Shown here: positions 1,975-37,846 of the stretch, piece by piece
Layout of the letters: each line of letters opens with the position of its first letter
How positions within the stretch are numbered: position 1 is the stretch's first letter
IMG/VR virus record: IMGVR_UViG_3300027969_000040
Source of the DNA: a virus
Taxonomy: Duplodnaviria; Caudoviricetes
Strand: one strand, 5' to 3'
DNA length: 64,000 bases
Program-made: the position numbers and the translations under genes
The notes under the pieces: generated by a model
The model's input: only the letters and a program-made list of their open reading frames with translations
Database searches by the model: none
Told to the model about the DNA's origin: nothing

Positions 1975-3810
1975 TTATAAAGTCACAGTAGTGGTAATTG
2001 TACTTACACCAGCACTAATCACAGCAGCGTTCACAGTGGTAGTTGCACTGGCACTGGTAGTAACTGTAATTGCACTGGTAGTTACTAAAATATTACTGGT
2101 GTAGAATACTATACTAGATCCTGTTGAAGTTAACGTTACATTGGCTGTTACTCTTGCACCACTGATATCATATGCATCAACCGTATATGTAGTGGGAATT
2201 GTAGTACCACTGTAGTTGTAACTAGTAGCGGCCGGTGTTACCGTAATAGTAGCCGGCATACTGCCCGACAACAGATGTACACGCCCATAAGCCAACGGAC
2301 CTTGATCTACCGCCCATATACGCCCTAAGCTATCTCTACCTATGCTGTTAAATTGATAGTTGTAACTAGCTGTCAAGTTCCATCCAGTCACTGCACTGTT
2401 GAAACTGTACACATAGGTATAATTGTGTGTGATGATAGCCATTAATGTTCTAGCATCATTTAACCAGCAGATATTCTTTGGTGTTGCCGGAACTGTCATG
2501 GCGCTATGGAATGTAGTCTGTGTGTAGTCGGTGCTACTAACACTGTAAGTCATAAATGTACGCTGTGCAACATTACCATCAAATATACCACCAGCACCAT
2601 GGAACTGCATCAGTGTTAGATATCTGGTACCACTGAAAGTAAACGACTCGTTATAAACGATACGTTGCATACCAGTGGTAACCGATACGCTACTGGCAGT
2701 TACAGTATCTGGATACCAATATGAGTTTTGAGTGGCAATGGTAGTTGTAATAACATTACCAAATCTTGAAAATGTATCGTTTGTTTTATTCCATAAAAAA
2801 TAGAAGGGGTGATATGCACCAGCGGTATCAAAATATGGAACATAGAATCCGGTCTGGCCACTAGTAACACTCGGGCTAGTATTAGGGTCTATAAAAGTTC
2901 TGCTGGCAAATTTTGGTTGGAATGTACCACCGGTCGGGGTTGTTCTTGCGCCGCCTGCACTACCACCTGTCCTACCATCAGCAGACGGGCTAGTATTAAA
3001 TATTCCCGGGTTGGTAGCTGTAGTAGTACCATCATTATACTTGTAGATGTTTTGTGTGTAGTCATTACCAATGTTATTGTTTAAGAACATGGCCAAACCG
3101 TCAACACTACTTACGCCCAAGAATTGCACTGTACTAGTCCCCGACCCTGCGCCTGCGGCTGCAATAGTAGGTGCTGCGGCACTAAACATGTTAGGTAAAT
3201 GCGCACCCTGGGTAAATCCCGGAACATAAGCAGTAACATGGTTATTTGCCACTAGTACCATGTTATTGGTACTGGGATTTCTGTAAACTGGAAATCCTGT
3301 ATAGGCAGCTGTCTGAGTAGCATTTTGCAACGGGAAACCTGTGCTACTATCAGTGTTTGTATTAACACGACGATAATAGGTAAACAAATCACCAGCTGCT
3401 AGCAGCGTCTGCTGATTGTAGCTAATAAGCACCTGATTATTAACACCATCTGTATCATATCTGCTTTGTATAATAGGGCGTGTAGGATCCATACTAGCAA
3501 ACGGTGCTTGGTCTAGGTTATTACTTTGCACTGCTTGAGTATTGAATGTAGCATGGCGAACAAAAGTCACTTCACCTTTGAGTTGCAACATGCCGCCCAA
3601 GGCTTCTGGCGCACCGGTTACTGTACTGTAGCCAAATGTGCCATAACCAGTTCCGGTGGTACTCCAACTAACGGTTCTATCAAAAAACACGCTCAAATTG
3701 GCACTGCTAAAGGCTTCATTTTGGAAATACAATTTTCCAGAACTTGGATATGGATCCTCTGTGAGTGCTGGGACTTGTACCCCGTATTTTGCTGTCCTAA
3801 TTATTGCCAT
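1975..3810 (-). CDS. Virion accessory protein (611 aa), beta-rich, probable propeller-like region plus C-terminal Ig-like domain
   Basis: Long Thr/Ser/Gly-rich ORF with TAGGAG RBS and upstream late promoter; C-terminal alternating V/T strands. Confidence 0.75.
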   Translation of the reverse strand: MAIIRTAKYGVQVPALTEDPYPSSGKLYFQNEAFSSANLSVFFDRTVSWSTTGTGYGTFGYSTVTGAPEALGGMLQLKGEVTFVRHATFNTQAVQSNNLDQAPFASMDPTRPIIQSRYDTDGVNNQVLISYNQQTLLAAGDLFTYYRRVNTNTDSSTGFPLQNATQTAAYTGFPVYRNPSTNNMVLVANNHVTAYVPGFTQGAHLPNMFSAAAPTIAAAGAGSGTSTVQFLGVSSVDGLAMFLNNNIGNDYTQNIYKYNDGTTTATNPGIFNTSPSADGRTGGSAGGARTTPTGGTFQPKFASRTFIDPNTSPSVTSGQTGFYVPYFDTAGAYHPFYFLWNKTNDTFSRFGNVITTTIATQNSYWYPDTVTASSVSVTTGMQRIVYNESFTFSGTRYLTLMQFHGAGGIFDGNVAQRTFMTYSVSSTDYTQTTFHSAMTVPATPKNICWLNDARTLMAIITHNYTYVYSFNSAVTGWNLTASYNYQFNSIGRDSLGRIWAVDQGPLAYGRVHLLSGSMPATITVTPAATSYNYSGTTIPTTYTVDAYDISGARVTANVTLTSTGSSIVFYTSNILVTTSAITVTTSASATTTVNAAVISAGVSTITTTVTL

Positions 3811-9067: not shown

Positions 9068-9074
9068 TATTTAT
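9068..9074 (-). promoter_or_regulatory. T4-type late promoter ATAAATA
   Basis: Overlaps the stop codon of the 3732-aa gene, upstream of the ATG at 9050. Confidence 0.6.
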
Positions 9075-12000
9075 TAAGAAACCATCTTGCTTGGTGGAGT
9101 GAATGCACCGGTGTATCTGGCCACGCTCTTGGTTACACGTAAATCATCAATGTAACCGTTGAAATAGTTGGATATTGTTGCACCGCCGCTGTAGCCGGCT
9201 CCGATATTCACTATGCTTGCACTTATATATGCGGTAGTATCAGCCCATGGGGTTCCAGCTACTACACCATTTATATACAAAGTAGTGGTATTAACATAAC
9301 GAACTAGAGCAATATGATACCATGTATTAATAGCAATTGCGCTGGCTGCGCTGGTAATCCTGTCTGCTGTGCTGACATAATATCTAACAGTTCCATCACT
9401 GCTTAAATAGATAAGATGATACGCCCCGTTAGTTGATGCCGGTCTGGTGTCAAATAACTGTGCAGAAGTACCCGGTAGTGCTGCGGCACGCATCCAAAAT
9501 TCGATAGTAAAATCGGATACAGCACCAAAGTTAAACTTGACATCCGAGTAGGGTACTGTTAGGTAGTTACTAGATCCGTTAAAATAAACAGATCCTGTGC
9601 CATACCGGTAAACTGAGTTGACTACTTGTGCTGCGCCTGCTACACTTCTGATCGCGCTCCTCGACGAGGGATCGTTAATAGCAGAAGTTACAGTATTGCC
9701 AATTAATAATGCAGTATTTGCAACCGTAGTCGGAGGGGCCGCAGGTGGTGTAAATGCACTGGTGTACAGTGCAGTACCGTTGACTAATCGAATACCGCCT
9801 ATATAGCCATTGAAAAATAGTGTATTGCTACCAGTTTGACGACCAATACTGCCGCCTGTGGTGGTACCCGCAACACCAAAACTGTCAGCTATTGTACCTT
9901 GGGCATAGACTGCTCCGTTAACATATATAGTTATTTGGTTTGTGCCGGTCCCGGTACGAACTACAGCCACATGATAAAATTGATTTGGTAATAGTGCAAC
10001 AGTTCCGGTTACATATACTGTGGTACTAACACCGGTAGCATAACCAAATTGTAAAAGTCCAGTTGCACTAAATCCCAGCTGCCATTGCCCAGTTTGGAAT
10101 GCTGCTGCAATACCAATAAAGTTGTCAATTAATTTAGGCTGTGCAGTTAGTAGACCAAAAGAATAAAACCAACATTCTAATGTAAAATTGCTTATGCCCA
10201 ATACCAACGAGCTAGCCGGTAAATTTAAATAATCTGCGGTACCATTTAGTACCACAGTTCCGCCGTATGCAGAATTTGACCAGCTGCCAGCTGGTGGATA
10301 TGGTGAAAAGTTTTCAACAGTGGGTGTACCTGCCCTGGTTAATGTTCTAGCATAAACTGATCGATCCACTGCATAGCTATCTTTTAAAGTTAATAAACTA
10401 GTACCAGCTGCAAACGGACTTGCCGTCGACACTGTAGCCAAATTATTGACCATTGCATATGCATTAACACTAGAATCTACAACAGTAGCATTACCAGCAG
10501 CGAGCAAATTGGTAATACCAGTACCAAACGGATTAACAAGTGCCGTGGTAGTTGGTGGCCCTACATTGGTTAAAGTAAATGCATAAGGTCCAGAATCAGT
10601 GAGAGTGCTAGATCTTGCTGCAAGTAAATTAGTATAACCAAAAGGAACAGATGATCCGCCACTGTTAAAAGCAGGATTGCCAGTGGCAGTTATTGAAATG
10701 GCATTGGTACTATTATCAATTGCAGTAGCTGATTGTGCAGTTAAAAATATAGTATTAGCGATAGCAGTTAATGATGTTGTTGGCGGTAGGAAATTAACTG
10801 TAGTATATAGTGCAACACCACTTAGAATTCTAAGATTACTTATGTAGCCGATAAACGGAAACGGATTAGAATCTGCGTATCTACTACCCAATCGAACAGT
10901 GTCGGACAAATTAGAAAATGTAGAAGTCATTGAGCTGATAAACGTACCATTGACAAAAGCAAATAATCTATTAGATTGCATGGTTAATACAACATGTGTC
11001 CAAGTACTAGTCGGTAATGTCCACGAAATAAAATTTACACCTGCGCTATTTGCATTAGCAATACCGGCACCGTTACGTGCAAGTATAAATCCTGATGTTG
11101 TTTGAGTTGTACTAGTTACAATACCTGCTAGACTATCAGCTGCAGGGTCAACCCATACCCAACACTCTACTGTAAAGTCGCCGGTGCCTATAACAAAACT
11201 ATTACTAGTAGCAGTCAAGTAACTGCTACCATTGAAATATACGCTATAAGGAACAACGGGTTGTGTTATTGTTGTTAGTCCTACAGTAGGAACAGTAAAA
11301 GCAATAGATTGATATATTGCTGCACCTTTTGTTATTCGAAGATTTGTCAAATAACCTGCCCAAGACGATACAGTTGTTGCGCTCCATGAGCCAATTGCCG
11401 TCAATCCAGCTGAATAGTTGTCAAGATTGGCAGCACTTGCCATTGCTTGGCCATTGATATATATTGTTATTATTCCACTAGCTCTTACCGCAGCTACATG
11501 TGCCCATGTATTAATTGTTATAGTATTAGTAGGAGTAGTAATTAATAATATATTATTAACCGAGTAAAATACAACTGCGCCAGTTGCATTGTTAACACCA
11601 ATCCGATATGTACCTGCACCCGACCCAGTTCCAACAAAATAAGTTGGCCCAGTGGTTGTTGTATAATAGATCCATGCTTCAATGGTGAAATCCCCGGTAC
11701 CCATTTGTAATGCTACATTGTCTGGTACTGTTGAATATGCTGGTAAAGAATTAAGTGCTGGCGCTATGTCGGCAGATACAACAAGGTTGGTATTAGTCAC
11801 AGTTAGACTATAGCCCCCGGTATCGGTGATATATCCTGCTGTACCGTTTAATAGCAATGACGTATAACTCAAATTTGGTATTGCCGCAGAAGGATTGCCA
11901 TTCTGATTAGCAATTTGTGTACTAGTCAATTGGCCTGTGGAAACAACAAAATTGCTGGTATATACAGCTAGACCTTTAACAATACGGAAATTAGAAATAT

Positions 12001-15000
12001 AACCTGCAAAGGGAAGAAGATTGCCGTCGGAATTAGCACCAATCGTTAATAAATTATTACCAGTATTACTCATAACGGCAGCCAGAGATACAGGAGTTTG
12101 TGATACCCCATTTACATATGCAGTTATTGTATTTCCGTTACGCACTAATGCAAAATGATACCAAGTAGATATCACAAAGGTGCCAATTATGGTTTGTGCT
12201 GCCGCTGCGCCGGATCCACCGTTGCCCAAGGTCCATGTTCCAGTTCCGGCATTGATATTAAAAATATATGAAGGATTCACGGTGCCAGTTGCGCCACCTT
12301 TTCCAAATATTACACGATTAGATGCAACACTGGTAAGATAAAACCAAGTCTCTATGGTCCAATTTAGAGCACCGGTTGCTAAATCTAAAGCATCGCCTGT
12401 AGTTCCTGTAATAGATATATACTGGGTTGTACCATTGAAACTTAAACTACTTGCTAGCAGTGCAAAATTAGTACTATAATTAGTTGTAACATTGGAAATT
12501 GCTGTAGTTGATGGAGTAAAGTTTGCTGTGTACAGGGCTTGTCCATTTGTTACACGTAGGTTAGAAATATGTCCAGTGAATTTGCCACCTGTGCCTGACC
12601 ACCCACCAATGACTGTAGTATTAGCTGTGGTTCCCCATGTTCCAGTCTGGGCAATAGTACCAACATTATTTCCTGCCAGGTATACTGTTACCGTATTTGA
12701 TCGATTTACAAAAGCTATGTGTGTCCAAGTATTTAAACTTGGTGTTGTTGCTGTTACTGTTTGATAGCTAAGGCCATTTCTTGCTGCTACAATATATCCA
12801 GCATTAGTAATACCCCAAGTTTGATAACTAGTAACTCCCACATTACCACTAATAATATTAACTGAGGTAGCGTATGTAATACCAGTTGCAACAGCGGTCA
12901 TGTAGATCCATGCTTCGACTGTGTAGTCACTAGTTAATGTTGTTACTACTGCCAATGGCGCTGCCAAATAAGAAGTAGTACCATTGAATAATACACTGTA
13001 TGTGCCGGTGCCTGCCACAGTGGTTAGTGGCGCAATTGGTTGTACTGTAGACTGGACACCTTTATCAATTTGTAAATTAGATATGTATCCCGAAAAATAT
13101 GCAGTACCAGCCGGATTTCTACCAATATTTAATGTGTTAGTCGGCGCCGCAGTATTGTACACAAACGATGGTAAGCTACTTGAGCCAGCTGCTAGACCGT
13201 TAATATAAAAACCAACTGTTTTTGTATTAGCTGTAAAAGTAACCGCTATGTAGTTCCACTGGTTTAATACTACTACCGGATTTGAATTAAATGCCGGGTT
13301 GGTAACGGCGCTACCAGTGGCATTAAAGAACACCACGGACATGCTGCCAGTTACACCACCATAGGTGGTATTGTTAAGTTCAATACTGATCCCAGTTTGA
13401 CCGGCCACATTGGTTGTGGCTAGCGGAACCATTAGTGATGAGCTTCTTGGATATATCCAAAATCTCACAGTCCAATCTTCAATACCATTGTGTAAGAATG
13501 CCCACTCGATGGCAGTGCTCGCTGTGTAGTAGTCAGTGGATCCGTTGAATTGATAACTCCAACCAGTTACAAACGGATTCACTGCGCCTTGTGTAGCAGT
13601 ACCTGCTCTAACAATTAAATAGTTATTAAAGCTGTTGTCCGAGAAGAAATTGTTATTATTTGATACGTTGTACTGACTGGTCAATACACTGGTACCGGCA
13701 TAGGCAGTAAATGGATTGTTCACGCTAACGCCGGTTACACCTTGGTTGGTAATAGCAATAGCGCCGCCGCTGGTGTCAACAATAGTTCTAGACTGAGCTA
13801 TTAGCAAGCTGGTGGTACTGGTGAATGGATTAACTGCAATACTGGTTACTGTACCGGTATTGGTGATGGACACTGGCAGTGTACTATTGTCTACAATGGT
13901 TGCCGCTTGCGCAGTTAATACTATTACATAAGCTGGAATTTGTGTGGAGTCGGTAGCAATTGAAATGCCACCAACATTAGTTATTGCTGCTGAATTTGCA
14001 CTATTATCTATAATAGTATTATTTTGCAAAGTTAACAAGCTGGCCTGTGTTCCAGTCACGGCAGCAATATTACTGCTGGCATTTTGTATAGTAGATAATT
14101 GAATGGTAGGTGGTGTAAAGTTGCCAGTGTAGACTGCGACATCTTTTACAATTCTGAAATTACTAATATAGCCATTCCAGAATTGGTCGCCCGATGCACC
14201 ATCTGATTTACCGATATACCCTGGAGCAGTAGTATGTGAAATAGTTCCAGCATAGGTATAGACTGTACCGCCCACACCATTTTGATATATCCTAAATGAA
14301 CTGCCACTTCTAACCAATGCTACATGGTACCAAGTGTTTGTTGTTAGTGCTGGTAAACCAAAATCAAGATTAGAATCAATTGCCCATGATGTACCAGATG
14401 AACTAGCAATTTGCATGACTAATTTATTTGTGGTATTAAGTACACGAAATATTACACCAATGTATTGTAGTAATTCTCTCTTACCAAATATACCGTTTTG
14501 ACCGTTTAATACAGTAGTATATACCCATGCTTCAATAGTAAAATCACCAGTACTAAGATTAATTGCAGTTGAATGTGGTACAGTCAAATACTGTGTACTA
14601 CCATTAAAACTTGCATAGTAATATTTTGGTGGTAAGGTTGGTGTTAGTAAAGATGCTGTTGTGCCGCCAACGTTGGTGATTGTGTTTACATATGCACTTG
14701 CATCTGTTATAGCTGCGCCTTGTAATGTTAACATGCTGGTTTGCAATCCGGTGATAGCTGCTATGTTACTACTAGAACTTTGTGTAGTTGCCAGTGGCAA
14801 GGTTGGTACTGTAAAGTTGCCAGTGTATACTGCTACTCCTTTAACTACACGTAAATTAGTAATATAACCATTAAAAATGTAGCCAGGTGATAATGGAACA
14901 TTACCATCTGTACCAATTATTGGTCTATTAGTGCCGTTTAACCAATTTGTAGTACTGGTGCCGCTAGAGGATTGTACACCATTGATATATGTAGTCTGAG

Positions 15001-18000
15001 TTGTACCACTCCTACAAATCGCAATGTGATACCAAGTGTTAAGAGAAATTGTACCGTTAAAAATTTCACCAGCAGGACCTACACCAAAACATACATGACT
15101 AGCACCGCTACCGGTTCCAGCCGGTCGAGAATCATATAACCATCCATTAGTTGCAGAACGAGCATTTTGATATATCCACATTTCAATTGTGAAATCACCA
15201 GTGCCAAAAGCAAATTGCGAATTGGTTCCTGGTACATATAGATATTGTGTCAAACCATTGAACACTCCACTGTACGCGGCGGCATAGTTGATAGCAGCAG
15301 ATGGTAATCCATTTTGATTGGCTGTTTGTACGTTAGTCAACGAGGCTGTAGCTGGCGTAAACGTAGTAGTGTAAACTGCTATGCTTTTAACAAGCCTGAA
15401 ATTGCTTATATAGCCAGTGAATGGTTGTGTACCTGCGCTGGATGCTCCAATGGATATGGTATTTGTTGCAGCATAAAGACTGGGTGTACCACTTGAATAT
15501 GTCACAACCGAAGTACCATTTAGGTATAGGGTAAATATATCGCCATTTCTGACAAACGCCAGGTGATTCCATTGATTTAACGCTATAACCGAGCTTGATA
15601 CACTATCTGTTAGTACTGTCGACCCGTCAACGGATAACAAAAATCTAGCAAACCCACTGACATTATTACTGGTCATGACAACCCAAGACAGAGTTGTACC
15701 GCCAGTAGATCCAGACCATTGTCCAAAAAATATATTTTGTGCTGTCCAAGCTATAGATCTATAAACCCAAGCTTCGGCAGTAAAATTATCTGTACCAAAT
15801 TGGAATGTTGTACTAGTAGGAATTGTCAAATAGTTACTACCACTAAACGAATAGCTGTAGGATGCTGAGCCGGCACCAACAATGGCCCGTGATGGTACAC
15901 CATTTTGATTAGCTGTCTGTGATGATGTCAATGCTGTAGTAGCGGGCGTAAAGTTGGCTGTGTAAATGGCCACACCTTTTACCAATCTCATGTTGCTAAT
16001 ATAGCCAGGGAAATAGTAAGTAGTACCTTGGCCATCAAGTCCAAAGCCCACCGACAATAGCGCAGTGGACGCTGTGATACTAGCCGGGGCTGCAACCGAA
16101 CTAACCAACGACCCATTGAGATAAACATTAGAGTTTGCAGTTGATTTGACCCATGCTACATGGTACCAGGTATTGGCTGCAATTACACTAGACGGCGATG
16201 ATTGAAATAGTGTAGTGTTATAATCTACACGTATGTTGCCACTCATTGTACGCATCTGGAATGCTTTACCACCGGCAGTGGTCCACAAACTCACAATGCT
16301 TGCATTGGCTCTAGTTATATCTGTAACATATATCCAAGTTTCAACTGTAAACTCAGCTGCGCCAAATACATACCCGGTATTATTTGGCGCAGTCAAATAT
16401 TGGTTAACACCATTCAAATACACACTGTAATTTTTTACCACTGGCTGATCAATTGCAGTAATATTAGTTCCAGATGCTTGTGTTGATGTCAGTGATGACG
16501 TAGACGGCGTAAAATTACCAGTATAGACCGCAATGCCTAATACTTTACGGAAGTTGCTAATATAGCCGGTCCAATATAAACCCGGTGTGGTTCCTGCACC
16601 ACTACCAATTGACAATGGTGCCACATTAGTATGTACATTTCCTGCAACTGTTGCAGTACCGCTTATATTACCATTGACCCATACCGACCACGTATTACTG
16701 GATTTAGTAACTGCTACGTGATTCCATAGTCCGGCCTTAATAGACGCATTTGATGTAATCGCCACCGTCCAAGTTGCACCATCTGTACTGGCATTGAATA
16801 CTGGTGCCAGTGTACTTGCAAATGCCAATTGGTAACCAGAAAATAATGCTGTTGTGCCACGCTTGGCAAATACAGCTCCAGTAGGAGTAGTCAGCGTAGT
16901 CCATATCCAAGCTTCTAGTGTAGTATTCAATACTCCAATATTAAACTCAGGTGCATCTGCAATGGTAAAGTAATCTGTAGTACCGTTAAAATAAGTTGAA
17001 CCCAGTGTAGCATTATCGCCAGACAATGTTAACGCACTAGCAAACGGCGCACGAGCTTGAGTGGGTCTGATGGCAGCATTGGTATTTGTTAAAGTTAAAT
17101 TATTTCCAGAATTGTCAACAAACGTGCTATTCTGCAATGCTAATAATTTAGTTTGACCGGCTGTGATTGCAGCTGACGGAAATCCGTTTACGTTTAAATC
17201 TTGTACGGCTGTCAACGGCACAGTTGATGGTGTAAAGTTGCCAGTGACAATTACCAGCGTGCCTTTAACTACACGAATGTTGGTAATGTATCCAACGAAT
17301 GGTCTGCTGGGTCCATTTATCCAAGCACCTATATAGGTTTGGAAGCTGGCAGACCAGTTGACTGATACAGTTGACACTGCTACCGAACCGCTGAGTCCGG
17401 CGGTCCTATACAACGACAATGTGGTACCTGTGCGTATTAATCGATAATAGTACCAAATATTTGGTGATAGTACACCTGCAGATTCTGTGATAGTATAAGC
17501 AGTAACTCCTGAATATATGGTTGCAGTCATTGCAGCATTATTCATTTCAAGTACGATGCCTTCGTCTGCATTGCTAGCGATTGTGCTATTTGAAATGGAG
17601 AATACTCGCTGTAGTCCAACTACGGTAGTTGGATATATCCAAAGATCTACTGCAAAGTCGCCAGCACCGACTTGGAAGGCAGCGTTATTTGCCACCTGTA
17701 GATACTGTATGTTTAGACTTTGATCTGTGGTCAGCGTATTAGGAAAACTTCTGCCTGGTCCCCATATTATACGTACTGCGCCTTGGCCTCCATAACCACC
17801 TATAGGTGCTTGGCCGCTGTTATCACTGCCACCACCACCGCCACCACCAAAATCGCCGCCAGGATTATATCCCAGTGTAGTTATGCCGCCGGGTGCTCCT
17901 ACTGCCCAACCACGGGCGCCGCCACCATTGCCAGTACCGAATGGTGTTGTTAATCTATAGATAACTCCGGTATTGGTTATGGTGTTAGGTGTTGTGCTCA

Positions 18001-20272
18001 AATCAGTTATGTATGCCGCACTGTTTGCAGACAACAATAATAGCGATGTTGCACTGGCACTGGCAATTGCTTGAATGTTAAGTATTGGGTTACCAGTCTG
18101 GGTAGCAGTCAGTGGCGCAGTGGGTGGTGTGAAGTTGCCTGTATAGACTGCAACACCTTTGACTATACGTGCATTAGTTATGTATCCAGAAAAGACGTTA
18201 CTAGAATCATTTGTTTGTCTACCAATTGATATTCCACCAGTGGTACCAAAGGCTTGGGTCAATGCTCCTGGGCTGGTTGCTGCAAGCACGCCGTTTACAT
18301 AAATTTTTAAGTTTCCAACGGCAGAGCCCGAACGAACCACAGCAATATGATACCAAGAGTTTATAGTCACTGCCGATGCTGCTGTGCCAAAAAAGGTAGC
18401 AGCGGAGGCGGCAGTGGCATAACCAAGAGCAACTGCTCCAGTAGTTAACAATTGAAGTTGGCATTGGCCAACGATGTATGATCCGGATGCATTGCTAAAT
18501 AGATCAATAGTTTGTTGAGTAGCAGCCAAACTTCTTGTATATATCCAACATTCTATGGTGAAATCACCAGTTCCAAAACTAAATGCTGCATTGGCAGGCA
18601 CAGTCAAATAACTACTAGAACCATTGAAAAATAGGGCGCCACCAGGTGCATAGTCGGCCGATCCACCAAAAGTTTCTTGGTTTAGCCCAGGTGCTGCATT
18701 ACCACTGGTTCCTTGCCCAAGTACGCCAACACCGCCGCCACCGGTGCCGATGGGGTAAGGTGCATTGCCAGCATAATACCCCAAGCCGCCGCCAGCGCCT
18801 CCGCCTGTACCTGCTGTAGTAACGTTACCAGTTGGCCCAAACATGCCGTTACCGCCTGCACCAGTGTATCCACCACCTCCGCCCCCGCCGGCAGTAGCGA
18901 ATGTGGCTCCAGTGGCTGTTGTTCCGCCAGTACCACCGAGGCCGCCGCCATCACCGAGAAATGATCCGCCAGCGCCGCCGGTGTTATTAATGGCGCCGCT
19001 GCCGCCAACACCTAAAACAGTTGTTCTATTAATGAAGTAACTGTCGCCGCCGGCACCACCTATGCTCACACCACCGCTGCCTAATGAACTTGGGCCACCA
19101 ATCCCTCTTGAACCAACAACAACAGTATAACTGGTTCCTGGTGTTACTGAGATGTTATTTCGCCATCCCAGGCCACCCCCGCCACCGCCCTCGCCACCAG
19201 AGTAGCCATTGTGTCCACTCCAGCCTGAGTTGCCACCGCCACCTGCACCAACGGCTACCGCCGACACACTGGTAACACCCGCAGGGCATACCCAAGTTGC
19301 ATTGCTGGTAAACAATTGTTGATAAACCAAATTGGCAGTTACTAGACTACCACCAGCGTCCACAGGTGTTAGTGTGCTGTAGGTGATTGGATACGTTGCT
19401 GGGTTGAGCACTGTAAATGCATTGGCACTGGAATCTGTGATATAGGTTGGCGCAGAAGTTACATTTAGTAATAGCGATGTTCCTGTTACATTGGCAGCCA
19501 GGGTAGTTGGCACTGATGCTCCATATAGTGCAACACCGTTGACAAATCTAAAGTTATTAATGTATCCATTAAAGAATTGACCAGTGTTGCTATTTCCAAT
19601 CATTAGCACGTTGTCTGTCCAGCTGACTGTTTGAGTTGCACTATTTGTTAATGTGCCATTCATCCAACAGGCATGTACATTTGCACGTCTGGTATAAGCG
19701 ACATGCATCCAACTGTTAGTTGGTATGCTTCCAGCCGACCCCGGAAGTCCAGCACTTGGTGGTACTACCCAATTACTACTGTTACTACGTATACCCATGC
19801 CATTAGCGTTACTGATAAACCAGTGCCACCCAGCATTACTACCACCTGCGGTTGTGCTGGCAATTGCTTCAGTTGCCGTACCGGGTGTGCTAATATATAT
19901 CCAGCATTCTGCTGTAAAATCTCCCACTCCGGTGGCAAAAGCAGCAGAGTTTGCGGCTGTTGTTAATTGAGCAGCACCACCAAAATAGACTGGATAGTTA
20001 AGACCAGTAGTTGGCAAGAATGGATTGTTTAAATCTGGGCGAGCAGAGCCAGCTGGGACAACGGTTAGTGCGTTTGAACTAGCATCGGTATTGTATACTG
20101 GTGCTGTGGTATCAGCTTGTATTTCTAAAATAACACTTTTTCTATAGGGATCATTTGTGGTCCAAGTATCTGCACCTGTATATTTGGCAGTGTCGGCCGT
20201 GGACCAAACTCCACCATCTGCTGGATATATTGTAGTTGAAGTTATTAGTCCACCTGGGAATTTTTTTGCCAT
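9074..20272 (-). CDS. Giant multi-LamG (concanavalin A-like) putative receptor-binding protein (3732 aa) with one glycine-rich domain
   Basis: 15 copies of the core (D/N)(F/W/Y)T(I/V)E-x-W...GYISN(F/L)R-x-x-KG-x-A-x-YT-x-NFTP counted in the translation; GGGGG-rich domain at about aa 320-860. Confidence 0.9.
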   Translation of the reverse strand: MAKKFPGGLITSTTIYPADGGVWSTADTAKYTGADTWTTNDPYRKSVILEIQADTTAPVYNTDASSNALTVVPAGSARPDLNNPFLPTTGLNYPVYFGGAAQLTTAANSAAFATGVGDFTAECWIYISTPGTATEAIASTTAGGSNAGWHWFISNANGMGIRSNSSNWVVPPSAGLPGSAGSIPTNSWMHVAYTRRANVHACWMNGTLTNSATQTVSWTDNVLMIGNSNTGQFFNGYINNFRFVNGVALYGASVPTTLAANVTGTSLLLNVTSAPTYITDSSANAFTVLNPATYPITYSTLTPVDAGGSLVTANLVYQQLFTSNATWVCPAGVTSVSAVAVGAGGGGNSGWSGHNGYSGGEGGGGGGLGWRNNISVTPGTSYTVVVGSRGIGGPSSLGSGGVSIGGAGGDSYFINRTTVLGVGGSGAINNTGGAGGSFLGDGGGLGGTGGTTATGATFATAGGGGGGGYTGAGGNGMFGPTGNVTTAGTGGGAGGGLGYYAGNAPYPIGTGGGGVGVLGQGTSGNAAPGLNQETFGGSADYAPGGALFFNGSSSYLTVPANAAFSFGTGDFTIECWIYTRSLAATQQTIDLFSNASGSYIVGQCQLQLLTTGAVALGYATAASAATFFGTAASAVTINSWYHIAVVRSGSAVGNLKIYVNGVLAATSPGALTQAFGTTGGISIGRQTNDSSNVFSGYITNARIVKGVAVYTGNFTPPTAPLTATQTGNPILNIQAIASASATSLLLLSANSAAYITDLSTTPNTITNTGVIYRLTTPFGTGNGGGARGWAVGAPGGITTLGYNPGGDFGGGGGGGSDNSGQAPIGGYGGQGAVRIIWGPGRSFPNTLTTDQSLNIQYLQVANNAAFQVGAGDFAVDLWIYPTTVVGLQRVFSISNSTIASNADEGIVLEMNNAAMTATIYSGVTAYTITESAGVLSPNIWYYYRLIRTGTTLSLYRTAGLSGSVAVSTVSVNWSASFQTYIGAWINGPSRPFVGYITNIRVVKGTLVIVTGNFTPSTVPLTAVQDLNVNGFPSAAITAGQTKLLALQNSTFVDNSGNNLTLTNTNAAIRPTQARAPFASALTLSGDNATLGSTYFNGTTDYFTIADAPEFNIGVLNTTLEAWIWTTLTTPTGAVFAKRGTTALFSGYQLAFASTLAPVFNASTDGATWTVAITSNASIKAGLWNHVAVTKSSNTWSVWVNGNISGTATVAGNVHTNVAPLSIGSGAGTTPGLYWTGYISNFRKVLGIAVYTGNFTPSTSSLTSTQASGTNITAIDQPVVKNYSVYLNGVNQYLTAPNNTGYVFGAAEFTVETWIYVTDITRANASIVSLWTTAGGKAFQMRTMSGNIRVDYNTTLFQSSPSSVIAANTWYHVAWVKSTANSNVYLNGSLVSSVAAPASITASTALLSVGFGLDGQGTTYYFPGYISNMRLVKGVAIYTANFTPATTALTSSQTANQNGVPSRAIVGAGSASYSYSFSGSNYLTIPTSTTFQFGTDNFTAEAWVYRSIAWTAQNIFFGQWSGSTGGTTLSWVVMTSNNVSGFARFLLSVDGSTVLTDSVSSSVIALNQWNHLAFVRNGDIFTLYLNGTSVVTYSSGTPSLYAATNTISIGASSAGTQPFTGYISNFRLVKSIAVYTTTFTPATASLTNVQTANQNGLPSAAINYAAAYSGVFNGLTQYLYVPGTNSQFAFGTGDFTIEMWIYQNARSATNGWLYDSRPAGTGSGASHVCFGVGPAGEIFNGTISLNTWYHIAICRSGTTQTTYINGVQSSSGTSTTNWLNGTNRPIIGTDGNVPLSPGYIFNGYITNLRVVKGVAVYTGNFTVPTLPLATTQSSSSNIAAITGLQTSMLTLQGAAITDASAYVNTITNVGGTTASLLTPTLPPKYYYASFNGSTQYLTVPHSTAINLSTGDFTIEAWVYTTVLNGQNGIFGKRELLQYIGVIFRVLNTTNKLVMQIASSSGTSWAIDSNLDFGLPALTTNTWYHVALVRSGSSFRIYQNGVGGTVYTYAGTISHTTAPGYIGKSDGASGDQFWNGYISNFRIVKDVAVYTGNFTPPTIQLSTIQNASSNIAAVTGTQASLLTLQNNTIIDNSANSAAITNVGGISIATDSTQIPAYVIVLTAQAATIVDNSTLPVSITNTGTVTSIAVNPFTSTTSLLIAQSRTIVDTSGGAIAITNQGVTGVSVNNPFTAYAGTSVLTSQYNVSNNNNFFSDNSFNNYLIVRAGTATQGAVNPFVTGWSYQFNGSTDYYTASTAIEWAFLHNGIEDWTVRFWIYPRSSSLMVPLATTNVAGQTGISIELNNTTYGGVTGSMSVVFFNATGSAVTNPAFNSNPVVVLNQWNYIAVTFTANTKTVGFYINGLAAGSSSLPSFVYNTAAPTNTLNIGRNPAGTAYFSGYISNLQIDKGVQSTVQPIAPLTTVAGTGTYSVLFNGTTSYLAAPLAVVTTLTSDYTVEAWIYMTAVATGITYATSVNIISGNVGVTSYQTWGITNAGYIVAARNGLSYQTVTATTPSLNTWTHIAFVNRSNTVTVYLAGNNVGTIAQTGTWGTTANTTVIGGWSGTGGKFTGHISNLRVTNGQALYTANFTPSTTAISNVTTNYSTNFALLASSLSFNGTTQYISITGTTGDALDLATGALNWTIETWFYLTSVASNRVIFGKGGATGTVNPSYIFNINAGTGTWTLGNGGSGAAAAQTIIGTFVISTWYHFALVRNGNTITAYVNGVSQTPVSLAAVMSNTGNNLLTIGANSDGNLLPFAGYISNFRIVKGLAVYTSNFVVSTGQLTSTQIANQNGNPSAAIPNLSYTSLLLNGTAGYITDTGGYSLTVTNTNLVVSADIAPALNSLPAYSTVPDNVALQMGTGDFTIEAWIYYTTTTGPTYFVGTGSGAGTYRIGVNNATGAVVFYSVNNILLITTPTNTITINTWAHVAAVRASGIITIYINGQAMASAANLDNYSAGLTAIGSWSATTVSSWAGYLTNLRITKGAAIYQSIAFTVPTVGLTTITQPVVPYSVYFNGSSYLTATSNSFVIGTGDFTVECWVWVDPAADSLAGIVTSTTQTTSGFILARNGAGIANANSAGVNFISWTLPTSTWTHVVLTMQSNRLFAFVNGTFISSMTSTFSNLSDTVRLGSRYADSNPFPFIGYISNLRILSGVALYTTVNFLPPTTSLTAIANTIFLTAQSATAIDNSTNAISITATGNPAFNSGGSSVPFGYTNLLAARSSTLTDSGPYAFTLTNVGPPTTTALVNPFGTGITNLLAAGNATVVDSSVNAYAMVNNLATVSTASPFAAGTSLLTLKDSYAVDRSVYARTLTRAGTPTVENFSPYPPAGSWSNSAYGGTVVLNGTADYLNLPASSLVLGISNFTLECWFYSFGLLTAQPKLIDNFIGIAAAFQTGQWQLGFSATGLLQFGYATGVSTTVYVTGTVALLPNQFYHVAVVRTGTGTNQITIYVNGAVYAQGTIADSFGVAGTTTGGSIGRQTGSNTLFFNGYIGGIRLVNGTALYTSAFTPPAAPPTTVANTALLIGNTVTSAINDPSSRSAIRSVAGAAQVVNSVYRYGTGSVYFNGSSNYLTVPYSDVKFNFGAVSDFTIEFWMRAAALPGTSAQLFDTRPASTNGAYHLIYLSSDGTVRYYVSTADRITSAASAIAINTWYHIALVRYVNTTTLYINGVVAGTPWADTTAYISASIVNIGAGYSGGATISNYFNGYIDDLRVTKSVARYTGAFTPPSKMVS

Positions 20273-20284
20273 TATTGATCCATT

Positions 20285-21952
20285 TTACACAACAAACGCC
20301 GCGCTGGTAGTAAATGCATGATAAACATAACCGCCACTAATACTTATATTTCCTCCAGTGGCCGCGGCCGCAGAACCAGGATATCTGACAACAACTAGTC
20401 CACTACCGCCTGCACCTGGAACATTATCATAGTAGCTACCGCCACCGCCCCCTCCCGAATTTGCAATACCATTTGTTGCTGCCACAGCATTGAGAACACT
20501 ACCACCGCGGCCGCCGCCGCCAAGACCAGCGGCTGTAATTGGGGATAATGTAGAGTATGTGACAGAACCAACGTTGGTTATAGTATATCCAAAGGCACCA
20601 GTATCAGTAAATGCAGCAGCCGATGATGAGGCTGTTAATAATACAGAAGTAGTGCCACTTGTAACTGCGGCAACATTACTGCCACCAAAAGGATTAGCAG
20701 CTTGCACCGCAGTCAATGGGCCCGCCGGCGGGGTAAAATCGCCAGTGTATACTGCTATACCATTTACCATTCTAAAATTGGTAATGTAACCATAGAACGG
20801 ATATGTGTAACTTGATGTAGCACCACGTCCAATCTGTAATATAGTCCGAGATGTCCAAGCCGGTACTGTTCCAGTGGCAATCTGTACACCATTAACAAAT
20901 AATCGAGCAGTAGTACCCGATCTTGAAAATGCCACGTGATACCAAGTCAATGTTGAGAAAGTGTATCCAGCAGAGACAAAATATAGTGTATTGTTAACTG
21001 CTTTATAAACAACAGTTAACCCACCGGGTTGAAAGTAAAATTGCCACGTGGCACTACTAGCACCATCGCCTTCGGCTGCAATTGCAGATGCCCGGATGTA
21101 CTGATTTGCGTTTGCTGGGTCTGGCATTGTAGTTATATACATCCAAGCTTCAACTGTATGGTCACTGCTGACCCAGCCTCCTGCATTGGTTGCACTTAGA
21201 TAGTTGCTGCCATTGAATAATAGTGCTCCAGACTGGCCCCCACCTAATCCATTAGTAACTGTGGCTCCAGCAGCACCACCACCGCCACCACTGGCATATG
21301 TATTTCCATCAAACCAAGTATATCCAACTCCGCCCTGACCTGATGCAGTTGTAATTCCAAGCCCGCCAACTCCGCCGGCGCCGCCGCCGCCACTGGAATA
21401 TGTAGCTGCACCACCGGCGCCGCCTGCAAAGCCTAGTCCGCCGCTGGCAGATGATGGTTGATTAGCGGCACCTGCGCCAATGCCCGACATGCCTCCACCA
21501 GACCCTCCAGCCAGTAATGCTTGCGGAACTCCAGTGCCCGTGGTGTAACTGCCGCCGCCTTGTCCTCCACCTAATGCAGTAAATCCATTAAATGTTGAAC
21601 TTAATCCAGTGGATAGCGCAGCAGTACTATTACCACTGTTTAAAACAATTGCCGGCCCGCCTGCACCTATAGTAACTGTATATGATCCGGTTGATGTAAT
21701 GAATCCAGTTTTGACCACAACACCGCCGGCACCGCCACCACCGCCTTGCCAAGCTAGAGCAGCATCACCTGTACCCCCTCCGCCACCGCCACCAACTATA
21801 ATATAGTCAATTGACAATTGTCCCGGACCTGGCCAGACACCTGCTTGTTTATTTTGCATCTGCTGCGACAATGTCCAAAATCCGCTACCATTGATATTGG
21901 TAGGATTATAATTCGATCCTGAAATTATTCCGCCAGGATATCTCTTGCTCAT
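20285..21952 (-). CDS. Glycine-rich domain plus single LamG putative receptor-binding protein (555 aa)
   Basis: IDYIIVGGGGGGG...GAGGSGLVVVRYP glycine-rich domain enclosing a DHTVEAW...YITNFRMVNG LamG core. Confidence 0.85.
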   Translation of the reverse strand: MSKRYPGGIISGSNYNPTNINGSGFWTLSQQMQNKQAGVWPGPGQLSIDYIIVGGGGGGGTGDAALAWQGGGGGAGGVVVKTGFITSTGSYTVTIGAGGPAIVLNSGNSTAALSTGLSSTFNGFTALGGGQGGGSYTTGTGVPQALLAGGSGGGMSGIGAGAANQPSSASGGLGFAGGAGGAATYSSGGGGAGGVGGLGITTASGQGGVGYTWFDGNTYASGGGGGAAGATVTNGLGGGQSGALLFNGSNYLSATNAGGWVSSDHTVEAWMYITTMPDPANANQYIRASAIAAEGDGASSATWQFYFQPGGLTVVYKAVNNTLYFVSAGYTFSTLTWYHVAFSRSGTTARLFVNGVQIATGTVPAWTSRTILQIGRGATSSYTYPFYGYITNFRMVNGIAVYTGDFTPPAGPLTAVQAANPFGGSNVAAVTSGTTSVLLTASSSAAAFTDTGAFGYTITNVGSVTYSTLSPITAAGLGGGGRGGSVLNAVAATNGIANSGGGGGGSYYDNVPGAGGSGLVVVRYPGSAAAATGGNISISGGYVYHAFTTSAAFVV

Positions 21953-21953
21953 A

Positions 21954-22316
21954 CTAGCTGATTTCCTCGTAGCTAACTGTGACTACTAGTGCGCTGGCTG
22001 TTGGGGTTACCGCAGTAATGCTAGTATTTTCTTCTAAATAGTATTGGCTACTTTTATCAATAACGTTTAGTGTACTCTTAGACGGTACACTCACGTTTGC
22101 CACAATAGGAAAAGCTGTCGATCCGTTATAGTAACTTACTGTAACTTCCGCTGCTGTTGAAGTGTTAGTGTTAGCTACGTTGAGTACGTTTATTTTAAAA
22201 ACTTTTCCTGAACTAGCACCATTGGTTAATACTGTTGTTACTGTTGTACTAGTAAGTGATGTTCCGGTTGTTTTTCCTGTAATTGTTGCTACATTAATTA
22301 TATTTGGTGCTGCCAT
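21954..22316 (-). CDS. Small beta-sandwich adaptor-like virion protein (120 aa)
   Basis: MAAPNI start; paralogue of 33081..33437; TAG stop. Confidence 0.8.
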   Translation of the reverse strand: MAAPNIINVATITGKTTGTSLTSTTVTTVLTNGASSGKVFKINVLNVANTNTSTAAEVTVSYYNGSTAFPIVANVSVPSKSTLNVIDKSSQYYLEENTSITAVTPTASALVVTVSYEEIS

Positions 22317-22320
22317 ATTG

Positions 22321-27480
<5,160 letters not shown>

Positions 27481-29899: not shown

Positions 29900-32800
29900 T
29901 TAATACTCGCCACCGTCAATTGTATCTGTATTAGTTAACACAGAATTTCCATTCTTTTTTATGTCTGTTGTTACTGATATATTACCTGCAGATAGTGTTC
30001 TAGTAGCAATTGCATAGCTAAGGTATTGGTTATCTGTTATTAACCCAGATGCTCCTGCTATCAATACTCTATTCTCAATTAAATGTGCATCTTTAAACCC
30101 ATCGGCAGTAACTGCGGCAGTGAATGTACCGGTGCCCTCTACCCTGAGCGGTCTTCCAATTGACCATGCATCGTGCCCGTAATCATACAGTATTGTTGCA
30201 GTACCATCTACGCCTAAATTAAGAGTTAAGCCGCCATTGGCCGATTCGGCCGCTGTAGTTGAATTTTTACCTAATTCAATGTTTAAATCGCCAACCGCAA
30301 CAGTAGTAGAATTTACAATAGTTGTATTGCCGCGTACAGTTAAATTGCCGCCAACAGTCAGATTGCCGCCTATTCCAACACCACCATATACTATAAATGC
30401 CCCTGTGTTTGTTTCGTCGGATTCTGTTAAATTTGTAATAATTACTTGAGAACTAGTAGTGCCGTCAAACCCGCCTCTACTGCCAACATATCCATTGATA
30501 CCCTGACTGCCAGTATATCCATATCCTGTTGCACCAACAGGCCCCGACGACCCTTTTGAACCAACATATCCTTGAGCCCCAGTAACCGATGCGCCTTGAC
30601 TACCTGTATATCCAATTCTAGTACTTGCAGATCCGGTATACCCAATACCGCCAATTGGGCCGGTTGGGCCGGTTATACCTTTGGCGCCAGATAAATCTGT
30701 TATATAAATGTAGCTAATGCCGTTCCATAGGTAAAGCATTGCATCTTCGGGATTTTCAACATTAGTGTCAACAATAGCAAACTGCCCGGCTACAATGCCA
30801 ACTGGCTCAGTATCATCTGTTAGCTCTATTAGAGTTGCATATCTCTTAGCTATAGTAAATCCTAAACCGGTATCCCCTTTACTACCAACATATCCTAATA
30901 TTCCAGTTGCACCAATTGGCCCAGTATCACCTGTATAGCCTCTGCTGCCAACATATCCATTAACACCGCCACTGCCAGTGTATCCGGTTGGGCCTGTTGC
31001 GCCAGCTGGACCTCTTACGCCGGTTGCACCGGTTGCTCCACCAGGGTCACCGGGAGCACCAGTTGGGCCTGTTGCTCCTATTCCGGTTGCGCCCCTTGGT
31101 CCAGTTGCGCCAGTATCACCGTTTGTTCCTTGTAATCCAGTTGCACCGATTGGTCCTGCTAAACCTGGTATTCCAAATCCAGTTGCACCGATTGGTCCAG
31201 TTGCGCCAGTATCGCCGTTTGTTCCTTGCAATCCAGTTGCACCGATTGGTCCTGATGCACCGGTATCGCCCCTGGCACCAGATAATCCAGTTGAGCCGCG
31301 GGCACCAGCCGGGCCGGTTAACCCAAATCCAGTTGCACCAATTGGTCCAGTTGCACCAGTATCCCCGTCTACTCCTTGTAATCCAGTTGCACCAATTGGG
31401 CCTGACGCACCAGTATCCCCGTCTACTCCTTGTAATCCAGTTGCACCAATTGGACCTGCCAAACCCGGTATTCCTATTCCAGTTGCGCCCCTTGGGCCAG
31501 TTGCACCAGTATCACCATCTGCTCCTTGCAATCCAGTTGCACCAATTGCTCCTATACCAGTTGCTCCTCTTGGTCCTACTACACCAGTTGCTCCAATTTG
31601 GCCAGATGTACCTTGAGTTCCTTGTAATCCGGTTGCACCAATTGGGCCTGTCGCGCCGGCATTGCCTTGTACCCCTTGTAGACCAGTTGCACCGATTGCG
31701 CCTGGTGTCCCGTCTATACCCGAGAATCCAGTTGCACCAATTGGTCCAGTTGCACCGGTATCGCCGTTTGTTCCTTGTGATCCAGTTGCGCCCTGAGAAC
31801 CATCTAATCCGTTTATACCCGCAACACCAGTTGCTCCTTTTGGTCCTGCTGCACCAGATGCTCCAGTAATTCCCGACAATCCAGTTGCGCCAATTGTTCC
31901 AGTTGCGCCGGCAACGCCTTGAATTCCTTGCAGACCAGTTGCACCATGGGTGCCTGCCGGCCCTTCTACTCCTTGTAATCCGGTCGCGCCAATTGGTCCA
32001 GTTGCACCAGCAACACCTTGAATTCCTTGTAGACCAGTTGCTCCTCGAGCACCAGCTGCGCCGGCTGCTCCTGCAAGACCAGTTGCACCTTGACTACCAT
32101 TAGTACCATTGGCGCCTGCTAATCCAGTGGCACCCGTAGCACCTGCGCCTGTAGCACCAGTGATACCTTGAACACCGGCTGTACCCCTCGATCCAGTGTA
32201 CCCAATGGCTCCTGCGGGCCCGGCCGCGCCTATTCCGTTTGCGCCCCTAGATCCAGCATATCCTCTTGCACCAGCTGATCCCGATGGACCGGTTGCCCCT
32301 ATGTCTCCACTAGGCCCGGTATCCCCTTTTGGTCCTTGAAATCCAGTGGCACCAATTTCGCCATATGGTATGCCATTAGCATGATAAAGTTGATCTGTGT
32401 AGATTGATCCTGCATATACATTGCCGGATATCCCAGCACCACCTGCAACTACTAATGCACCCGAGGTAGTTCCAACACTTGTTGTTGTATTTGTTAAATT
32501 TAATGCTCCGGCATCAACAATTCCAGCTGTGCCAGATATTACACCACCGAGGCTAACAGACCCGTTTGATATAAATTTTAAGTGTCCAGTTACATTGTCC
32601 CAAGCAACAAATGCGGATTGTTGAGATCCAACAGCAGATTTAAAGTAATTAAATTTAAATCCAATGTCAGAGCCGTCGTCAACTGTTAATGTAGTACCGC
32701 TTGTATGTAGAGTAATTAACGAATCGCTTACTGAAGTATTTACAGAACTAACTGTAGTAGGAGTACCTGTTAAAACTAAATTTCCAGTTATAGTAACGTC

Positions 32801-37831: not shown

Positions 37832-37846
37832 TTTTAACTCCAATTC

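Follow-up and report, generated by a model that had tools for sequence, protein, structure and literature searches.

The giant LamG-repeat gene and its two repeat elements

In a stretch of 64,000 nucleotides from the IMG/VR virus record IMGVR_UViG_3300027969_000040 (Caudoviricetes), hereafter the window, we analyzed a giant gene, P0001, which occupies positions 9074-20272 of the minus strand and encodes, in an open frame of 11,199 bases, a putative virion structural protein of 3732 residues. Pfam identified 15 stretches of Laminin_G_3 (PF13385) in this protein (767.6 bits against a cut-off of 27.6, E 3.9e-234). On the basis of structure prediction and statistics, P0001 is probably a nested array of LamG domains that are closed in last-in-first-out order, rather than a row of domains like beads on a string.

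Profile hidden Markov models (HMMs), seeded on the repeats of P0001 and iterated over 121 homologues, resolved the protein into 15 cores of about 165 aa (B), all matched by Laminin_G_3, and 13 strong segments of about 40 aa (A). Two further A segments were less clear: A0 scored 20 bits on the family A HMM, as a partial match to the second half of the profile only, and A14 is degenerate and was recognized by eye from the pattern T-x-LL ... I-N-D-x-S ... I-R-S-V-x-G. A first-pass annotation made from the DNA sequence had counted 15 cores and 15 A segments; the cores and 14 of the A segments are supported here, the weak fifteenth being A14. The HMMs recovered exactly the non-alternating order that it had described, namely A0 B1 A1 [glycine-rich] B2 A2 [glycine-rich] B3 A3 B4 B5 B6 B7 A4 B8 A5 A6 A7 A8 B9 B10 B11 A9 B12 B13 A10 A11 A12 A13 B14 A14 B15, and its two stacks of four A segments coincide with those found here (14044-13556 and 10753-10283). 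The elements of P0001 are as follows, all on the minus strand, from the N-terminus to the C-terminus of the protein:

20006-20137, minus: A0 (aa ~46-89), leading A segment with no preceding core
19496-19984, minus: B1 core (aa 97-259)
19346-19480, minus: A1 (aa 265-309), proposed partner of B1
18638-19303, minus: N-terminal part of a glycine-rich domain (aa ~324-545), a sub-threshold match to Pfam Gly_rich_2
17927-18628, minus: B2 (aa 549-720) and A2 (aa 742-782), a cassette within the glycine-rich domain
17753-17926, minus: putative closing part of the glycine-rich domain (aa ~783-840), from sequence
17027-17713, minus: B3 (aa 854-1019) and A3 (aa 1041-1082)
16493-16990, minus: B4 (aa 1095-1260), the outermost block 1 core, with A8 proposed as its partner (parse only)
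15932-16417, minus: B5 (aa 1286-1447), proposed partner A7 (by parse)
15341-15847, minus: B6 (aa 1476-1644), predicted partner A6 (structural model 2)
14624-15262, minus: B7 (aa 1671-1826) and A4 (aa 1845-1883), paired by elimination
13925-14608, minus: B8 (aa 1889-2058) and A5 (aa 2077-2116), predicted as one contiguous LG domain (structural models 1 and 2)
13556-13924, minus: A6, A7 and A8 (aa 2117-2239), the remainder of the first four-A stack
11930-13549, minus: B9, B10 and B11 (aa 2242-2781)
11744-11863, minus: A9 (aa 2804-2843), proposed partner of B11; orthologue P0005 lacks both
10772-11743, minus: B12 and B13 (aa 2844-3167)
10283-10753, minus: A10-A13 (aa 3174-3330), the second four-A stack; proposed partners B13, B12, B10 and B9, from the divergence of P0005 and a weak complex test
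9605-10249, minus: B14 (aa 3342-3513) and the degenerate A14 (aa ~3519-3556)
9083-9583, minus: B15 (aa 3564-3730), the last core, of the 'IDDLR' subtype and not followed by an A

The junctions between these elements are regular, measuring 0-1 aa from A to A, 0-12 aa from A to B and 9-28 aa from B to B, and a conserved linker of 18-22 aa joins B to A in most cases. We propose that P0001 would be built of 15 LamG beta-sandwiches (concanavalin A-like, of the LG/pentraxin fold), each composed of one core and one A segment that would supply the last two or three LG strands. Complete B-A units, or whole blocks of them, would have been inserted into other units at the point where the core gives way to the closing strands, the chain running out through the cores and back through a stack of A segments without linkers, with each A closing the core that was opened last. 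The proposed pairing begins with B1-A1, the glycine-rich domain enclosing B2-A2, and B3-A3; it continues with block 1, B4(B5(B6(B7-A4)(B8-A5)A6)A7)A8, and block 2, B9(B10(B11-A9)(B12(B13-A10)A11)A12)A13, and closes with B14-A14, A0 and B15 being unpaired in this scheme. The pairings B6-A6 and B8-A5 are shown by structure prediction, and we infer the outer nesting levels and the whole of block 2. The proposed depth of 4 in P0001 rests on the parse, covariation and the orthologues, the inner two levels being those that were modeled cleanly.

Predicted structures

Model 2, an AlphaFold2 prediction of aa 1448-2155 (B6 B7 A4 B8 A5 A6), was computed from 18 collinear alignment rows, in all of which the elements run B B A B A A. 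Its mean pLDDT (predicted local distance difference test) is 70, with A4, A5 and A6 all ordered at about 70-80. In the numbering of this model, B6 corresponds to residues 29-197 and A6 to residues 670-706, and alignment against the PDB with VIA-align placed complete single LG and pentraxin domains on residues 22 to 698-708. These include the PAPP-A LG domain (212 aligned residues, Z 21.6, root-mean-square deviation [rmsd] 3.3), PTX3 (187 of 215 aligned), SAP (187 of 204), the neurexin LNS domain (about 170 of 178) and laminin LG5 (169 of 183), as well as CRP and perlecan LG3. Because these single-domain targets span residues 22 to about 705, A6 is predicted to pack onto B6, which lies 470 residues upstream. 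B8 and A5 appear as one contiguous domain (from 436/445 to 663-668), and no row of the structural search isolates B7 with A4, two-domain matches spanning residues 216 to 656-663 at high rmsd; from these matches and by elimination, A4 would belong to B7. The predicted models have two-sheet jelly-roll sandwiches, on which LG and pentraxin domains superpose overall at Z 15-21.6 and rmsd 2.6-3.4 over 169-212 aligned residues. Since model 2 closes B6 by A6 and B8 by A5, the A segment is, in the predicted structure, the C-terminal strand set of the standard LG/pentraxin topology. B6...A6 is therein a discontinuous host that encloses B7-A4 and B8-A5, and the resulting pattern, B6(B7 A4)(B8 A5)A6, equals the bracket parse of the first-pass annotation, with A6-B6 and B8-A5 paired as a last-in-first-out order predicts.

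Model 1 covers more of block 1 (aa 1041-2240) and was based on a 28-row alignment composed mostly of BBBBBAAAA architectures, which have no equivalent of A4. It also shows long-range closure, with B8 and A5 together over residues 842-1074 and B6 with a distal A segment over residues 430 to 1150-1160. Three distal A segments are ordered with a shifted register, A8 is disordered, and B5 is left without any A and has the lowest pLDDT among the cores. The nesting is still last-in-first-out, but the register is off by one. This shift was probably caused by the biased alignment, although that explanation was made after the fact, and we treat the register of model 1 as unreliable. Model 1 suggests that the predictor uses whichever free A segment is at hand.

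For block 2, the cores B10-B13 (with A9) were modeled in ESMFold2 as a complex with A10-A12 supplied in trans, which gave a score of 0.47 against 0.00 for the best control. This constitutes weak support, since passes with scores up to 0.60 are counted as weak. Of 80 solved complexes, 58 reach the mark, as do 2 of 110 mismatched pairs. At least 91% of the contacts were common among the runs, and the pLDDT of the partner was at least 69. When an unrelated protein took the place of the cores, the pLDDT of the A10-A12 stack fell to 26. The main value of this comparison is that, in these predictions, the A stack gives no sign of folding independently.

These models bear on an alternative that we regard as quite improbable, namely that P0001 is indeed a string of beads, in which the cores are self-sufficient LamG domains, the A segments are optional spacers or small stacking beta units, and the run lengths are a by-product of duplication. 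In keeping with this alternative, B5 of model 1 folds as a pentraxin-like core without any A segment (239-411, Z 19). By contrast, the disorder of the A stack when alone, its order only beside cores, and the modeling of A6 within the sandwich of B6 argue against it.

Covariation and the register of the A segments

Covariation between A segments and cores was measured in 786 B-A-B triples, with gap states excluded, as mutual information with average product correction (MI-APC). The top-10 MI-APC of an A segment was 0.106 with the preceding core, 0.074 with the following core, and about 0.06 with non-adjacent cores of the same protein. The strongest covarying pairs connect the second A strand (columns 23-27) with the first core strand (columns 2-6). 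We used these simple triples to train coupling tables and scored 82 independent B^nA^n blocks with them. When the 6-10 best column pairs were taken, last-in-first-out pairing stood out from permuted pairings at z about 3.0, as opposed to z about -0.6 for first-in-first-out pairing. In particular, the last A of a stack scored +0.8 to +1.5 with its last-in-first-out core, compared to +0.05 to +0.44 with the next core.

The latter comparison is relevant to a second alternative, an A-first register in which an A segment directly before a core belongs to that core, as in clostridial Hc-N type domains and solved LamG_3 domains, and only the leftovers pair at long range. The pairs would then be A0-B1, A1-B2, A2-B3, A3-B4, A4-B8, B7-A5, B6-A6, B5-A7, A8-B9, and so on, with nothing left over and no ring needed. 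This register, which we consider unlikely, retains our initial idea that A supplies the canonical N-terminal pair of strands to the core after it, an idea countered by model 2, covariation and the glycine-rich cassettes and kept as a rival. It is consistent with the short A-to-B linkers (0-12 aa) and with the solved LamG_3 domain 4qvs, which has A-like strands ahead of its core. On the other hand, model 2 joins A5 to B8 rather than B7, A covaries more strongly with the preceding than with the following core, and the last A of a stack fits its last-in-first-out core better than the next one, all of which favor the nested, core-first register.

A lone B-A cassette in glycine-rich domains

The Gly_rich_2 domain (PF21722) of P0001 scores 21.7 bits against a gathering score of 24.3 and is split at that point by B2-A2. 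A comparable arrangement is found in the gene immediately upstream of P0001:

20285-21952, minus: 555-aa protein with a Gly_rich_2 domain and one B-A cassette, no A ahead of the core

In this protein, the Gly_rich_2 domain scores 62.3 bits, and one core followed by one A is inserted near its end, the two aligning collinearly with B1 and A1 of P0001. B2-A2 is placed in the glycine-rich domain of P0001 like the cassette of this neighbor. If the units are read as a core and then an A, both arrangements are nested; if they are read as an A and then a core, the glycine-rich domain of P0001 and its two LamG neighbors would cross. The A-first register is also at odds with the 555-aa protein itself, where the A stands after the core and none before it.

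The first ~40 residues of the 555-aa protein weakly resemble the N-terminus of P0001 (M-x-K-[KR]-[FY]-P-G-G-x-I, E 0.003), and this common N-terminus may be a shared attachment peptide.

Orthologues as natural experiments

Four orthologues of P0001, 89-93% identical overall and drawn from independent assemblies of different sources, have the same order of elements or differ from it by whole units only. Orthologue P0005 lacks exactly B11 and A9, a difference of one whole bracket of the kind for which the first-pass annotation had proposed comparing relatives. Within block 2, P0005 has also diverged from P0001 unevenly, and the proposed partners have the following identities:

B12 70%, partner A11 42%
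B10 82%, partner A12 70%
B13 88%, partner A10 90%
B9 97%, partner A13 98%

This divergence is rank-perfect under last-in-first-out pairing. When the divergence of cores and partners was pooled over all orthologues, the nested pairing gave a Spearman rho of 0.40, which is reached by 0.5% of random pairings, compared to 0.28 for the A-first register.

Whole cores have also been exchanged. In proteins that are otherwise 90-99% identical, the B8 core (14099-14608) is replaced in all four orthologues (41-43% identity) and the B2 core (18113-18628) in two (44% identity). The boundaries of these replacements are sharp, extending from the core start to a GYISNxR motif, while the flanking A segments are kept at 85-98%. 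The swaps look like cassette exchange at candidate host-range determinants.

The orthologues also speak to the possibility that the order of elements in P0001 is an artefact of mis-assembled repeats in a metagenome. In favor of this possibility are the strongly repetitive nature of the gene and the metagenomic origin of its relatives; however, the agreement among four orthologues from different sources, the mutual identity of the repeats (~30-40%, too divergent to collapse) and a frame that stays open for 11.2 kb make this explanation extremely improbable.

A further orthologue feature concerns P0004 (3168 aa), which is missing the first ~560 residues (A0, B1, A1, the N-terminal glycine-rich part and the beginning of B2). 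Its first residue lies within a core, although the contig is 77 kb long. The short N-terminus could reflect another start site, a frameshift or splitting of the gene.

Grammar of A and B across giant homologues

The 121 homologues, of 2052-6531 aa, reduce to 102 distinct strings of A and B, among which runs such as B4A4, B7A6 and B8A8 recur. One leading A aside, no A is unmatched in 101 of the 102 strings, the exception being N-terminally truncated, whereas about 75 violations, in which an A lacks an earlier free core, would be expected in shuffled strings. The bracket parse leaves 510 unmatched tokens over the 102 strings, compared to 707 +/- 26 in shuffles. Because the parse outperforms shuffling and the four orthologues keep the order, the sequence of A and B is not due to chance. 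By parse, the nesting depth is 4 in P0001 and reaches 8 in P0020. For a string of beads, the near absence of an A without an earlier free core is difficult to explain. Moreover, a single unequal cross-over would give rise to unbalanced B-B or A-A junctions, and keeping the balance would therefore need selection. The A-first variant of the parse leaves 424 unmatched tokens (572 +/- 22 in shuffles), close to the theoretical minimum of 422, which is a point in favor of that register.

The protein gp173 of the cultured Synechococcus phage S-H9-1 has only B A B B and shows no nesting.

A subgroup of homologues (P0006, P0007, P0009, P0010, P0014, and P0017) start directly with a core at residue ~26. 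After a final stack of 3-6 A segments, they close with a conserved C-terminal domain of ~240-280 aa, the last residues of which are W-Y-Q-T. They form a mirror image of the type with a leading A and a trailing core.

Weighing the proposed nested arrangement

The first-pass annotation had claimed a last-in-first-out completion of A-less cores by A segments further along the chain, and model 2, covariation, the divergence of orthologues, the glycine-rich cassettes and the family grammar all support this claim. Last-in-first-out rather than first-in-first-out pairing is indicated by the couplings (z about 3 vs. -0.6), the ranks in P0005 and model 2.

Several observations weigh against the nested arrangement or limit its support. 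The case is computational as a whole, built throughout on prediction or statistics, and our confidence in it is moderate. Model confidence is likewise moderate (pLDDT 70, pTM [predicted template modeling score] 0.45), and strand pairing was read indirectly, from VIA-align alignment ranges against the PDB rather than from contacts. In model 1, A4 and A8 are disordered, B6 is closed by A7 rather than A6, and A3 is docked on B4 in an A-first topology (range 1-220), which aligns to AbnA domain 4 and toxin Hc-N at Z about 20, as the A-first register would have it. The ESMFold2 complex gives weak support, and its design is much like that of a split domain, the halves of which commonly pass. The covariation signal is carried by few subtype-defining columns, fading to z 0.4-1.1 with 20-30 column pairs, and the blocks are non-independent, as they come from related proteins; we regard covariation as supportive but not decisive. 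A14 scores 0.7 bits, without statistical support. The specificity of cores for A segments appears to be loose, because cores are swapped while the partner stays: where B2 is swapped, A2 is unchanged (98%), and where B8 is swapped, A5 is mildly changed (85-90%). Finally, across the 102 architectures there are 422 more cores than A segments, some homologues having 8-11 cores with 0-1 A, which suggests that a core can apparently exist without an A of the P0001 type. Both this surplus and the core swaps, which leave the A segments almost untouched, are what a string of beads would lead one to expect.

The leftover ends A0 and B15

Under the nested arrangement, P0001 begins with an A and ends with a core that have no partners. 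In the family, 42 of the 102 strings start with A, and all 42 end with a core; the 60 core-initial strings have a core at the other end in 38 cases and an A in 22 (Fisher p 1.3e-6 against the A-starting strings). The terminal core at the extreme C-terminus belongs to the conserved 'IDDLR' subtype. Among internal A segments, those placed after IDDLR-type cores are the most similar to the leading A segments (1.415 BLOSUM units per column), ahead of those preceding IDDLR-type cores (1.086) or following ordinary cores (1.134). These end statistics hint that A0 and B15 may complement each other, within or between chains, and they also fit the A-first register, in which the 42 architectures that begin with A and end with B would leave nothing over. 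It is possible, and we suggest it tentatively, that A0 and the A-less B15 complete one another and that the 3732-residue chain is closed as a topological ring, or else forms a head-to-tail donor-strand polymer or a swapped oligomer. If so, equal numbers of A and B would be a conservation rule throughout the family, and one phage gene would give rise to closed or self-assembling lectin arrays.

A coupling of +14.7 between the leading A and the last core turned out to be an artefact of gap-gap states, becoming -3.7 once gaps were zeroed, and was discarded.

Relation to known architectures and implications

In standard LamG, LNS and pentraxin domains (laminin LG5, neurexin LNS, SAP/CRP, PTX3, PAPP-A LG), the fold and strand order are as in P0001, and a core followed by its A aligns sequentially with these single domains. 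They are continuous, however, whereas in P0001 up to about 1100 residues and up to four LamG domains would lie between a core and its closing strands. Concanavalin A-like domains are also known in circularly permuted, A-first form, as in LamG_3 and toxin Hc-N domains (4qvs, AbnA domain 4), where the strand pair may precede or follow the core; the evidence for P0001 favors core-first order throughout, although model 1 used A3 in the A-first manner. In donor-strand complementation of chaperone-usher pili, an incomplete beta-sandwich is completed by a strand of the next subunit. P0001 would be similar in that its sandwiches are completed by strands from elsewhere, but these would belong to the same chain, except possibly in the case of A0 with B15.

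The principle of recursive insertion has a precedent in Si3 of the cyanobacterial RNA polymerase beta' subunit (RpoC2), in which eight hybrid-motif domains are inserted recursively over six levels (PMC13114784). In Si3, as proposed for P0001, one small beta domain is inserted recursively into its own copies, producing domains that are discontinuous several levels deep. Si3, however, consists of sandwich-barrel hybrid motifs and has a fixed, conserved architecture within a cellular enzyme, whereas the P0001 family has the LamG fold in a phage structural protein, with depths from 1 to 8 among relatives and whole units gained or lost. Insertion at one level (A1-B-A2) occurs in about 20% of multidomain proteins (PMC13114784), and there, as proposed for P0001, the interrupted host folds as one unit and the ends of the guest are close together at the insertion point; in P0001, host and guest would be of the same family, and the depth would be 4, or 8 in a relative. 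Laminin G3 lectin domains on tail fibers are mentioned in a review of jumbo phages, which makes no mention of nesting (PMC7824862), and in our literature searches we came across no account of LamG nesting or of an A/B grammar for phage structural proteins. No earlier description was known to the first-pass annotation; our searches agree for LamG domains in phage proteins, but the principle does have a description, in Si3 (PMC13114784).

If the nested arrangement is correct, the two ends of each nested block would lie side by side, and adjoining domains would be joined by two chain crossings instead of one, giving a branched, braced and multivalent array in place of a flexible string. Together with Si3, to which it is unrelated in structure, it would make two examples of homotypic recursive insertion. 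Marine phage genomes commonly encode giant LamG-repeat proteins, for which beads on a string is the routine annotation; these proteins would differ from the assumed form in shape, stiffness and valency, being branched and double-braced with block ends together, and this would bear on the way in which cyanophages locate and retain hosts. Programs that call domains as continuous stretches would mis-describe these proteins. The family would also offer a natural depth series from 1 to 8, with gain and loss of whole units and swaps of single cores, suited to studying the evolution of recursive insertion and how a discontinuous sandwich folds.

Genomic neighborhood

P0001 seems to be a virion-associated protein of a T4-like cyanophage. 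It matches PHROG families of 'virion structural protein' and 'baseplate wedge subunit', with phrog_3545, 24074, 13163, 8510, and 701 each matching 12-15 stretches; as all of these matches are carried by the LamG repeats, they say little about its position in the virion. Its place in the virion is supported by its neighbors, which are virion genes of T4-like cyanophages: downstream is a 1023-aa protein with 44-46% identity to virion proteins of S-PM2, S-RIM32, and relatives, and upstream is a collagen-repeat fiber gene. Judging from its family and gene neighborhood, P0001 is probably a fiber or baseplate-distal adhesin, and we infer a lectin-type role in host adhesion. Megablast of the P0001 gene against 50,697 phage records gave no match, suggesting that no close sequenced relative of this phage is among them.

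Other large genes in the window include the following:

22321-27480, minus: 1719-aa fiber protein that has five stretches of collagen triple helix and matches Reelin subrepeat-B at 28.5 bits (cut-off 27)
33530-37843, minus: 1437-aa protein with Gly_rich_2 and one LamG core, and no A segment by the A-segment HMM
37847-42739, minus: 1630-aa protein that combines a GDSL lipase/acylhydrolase domain, an ILEI domain and a LamG core

The 1630-aa protein could serve as an esterase that is carried by the virion and directed at a surface polymer of the host. The GC content is 0.44-0.50 at 16001-22000 and 30001-32000, compared to 0.33-0.42 elsewhere, and this elevation coincides with glycine-rich coding stretches.

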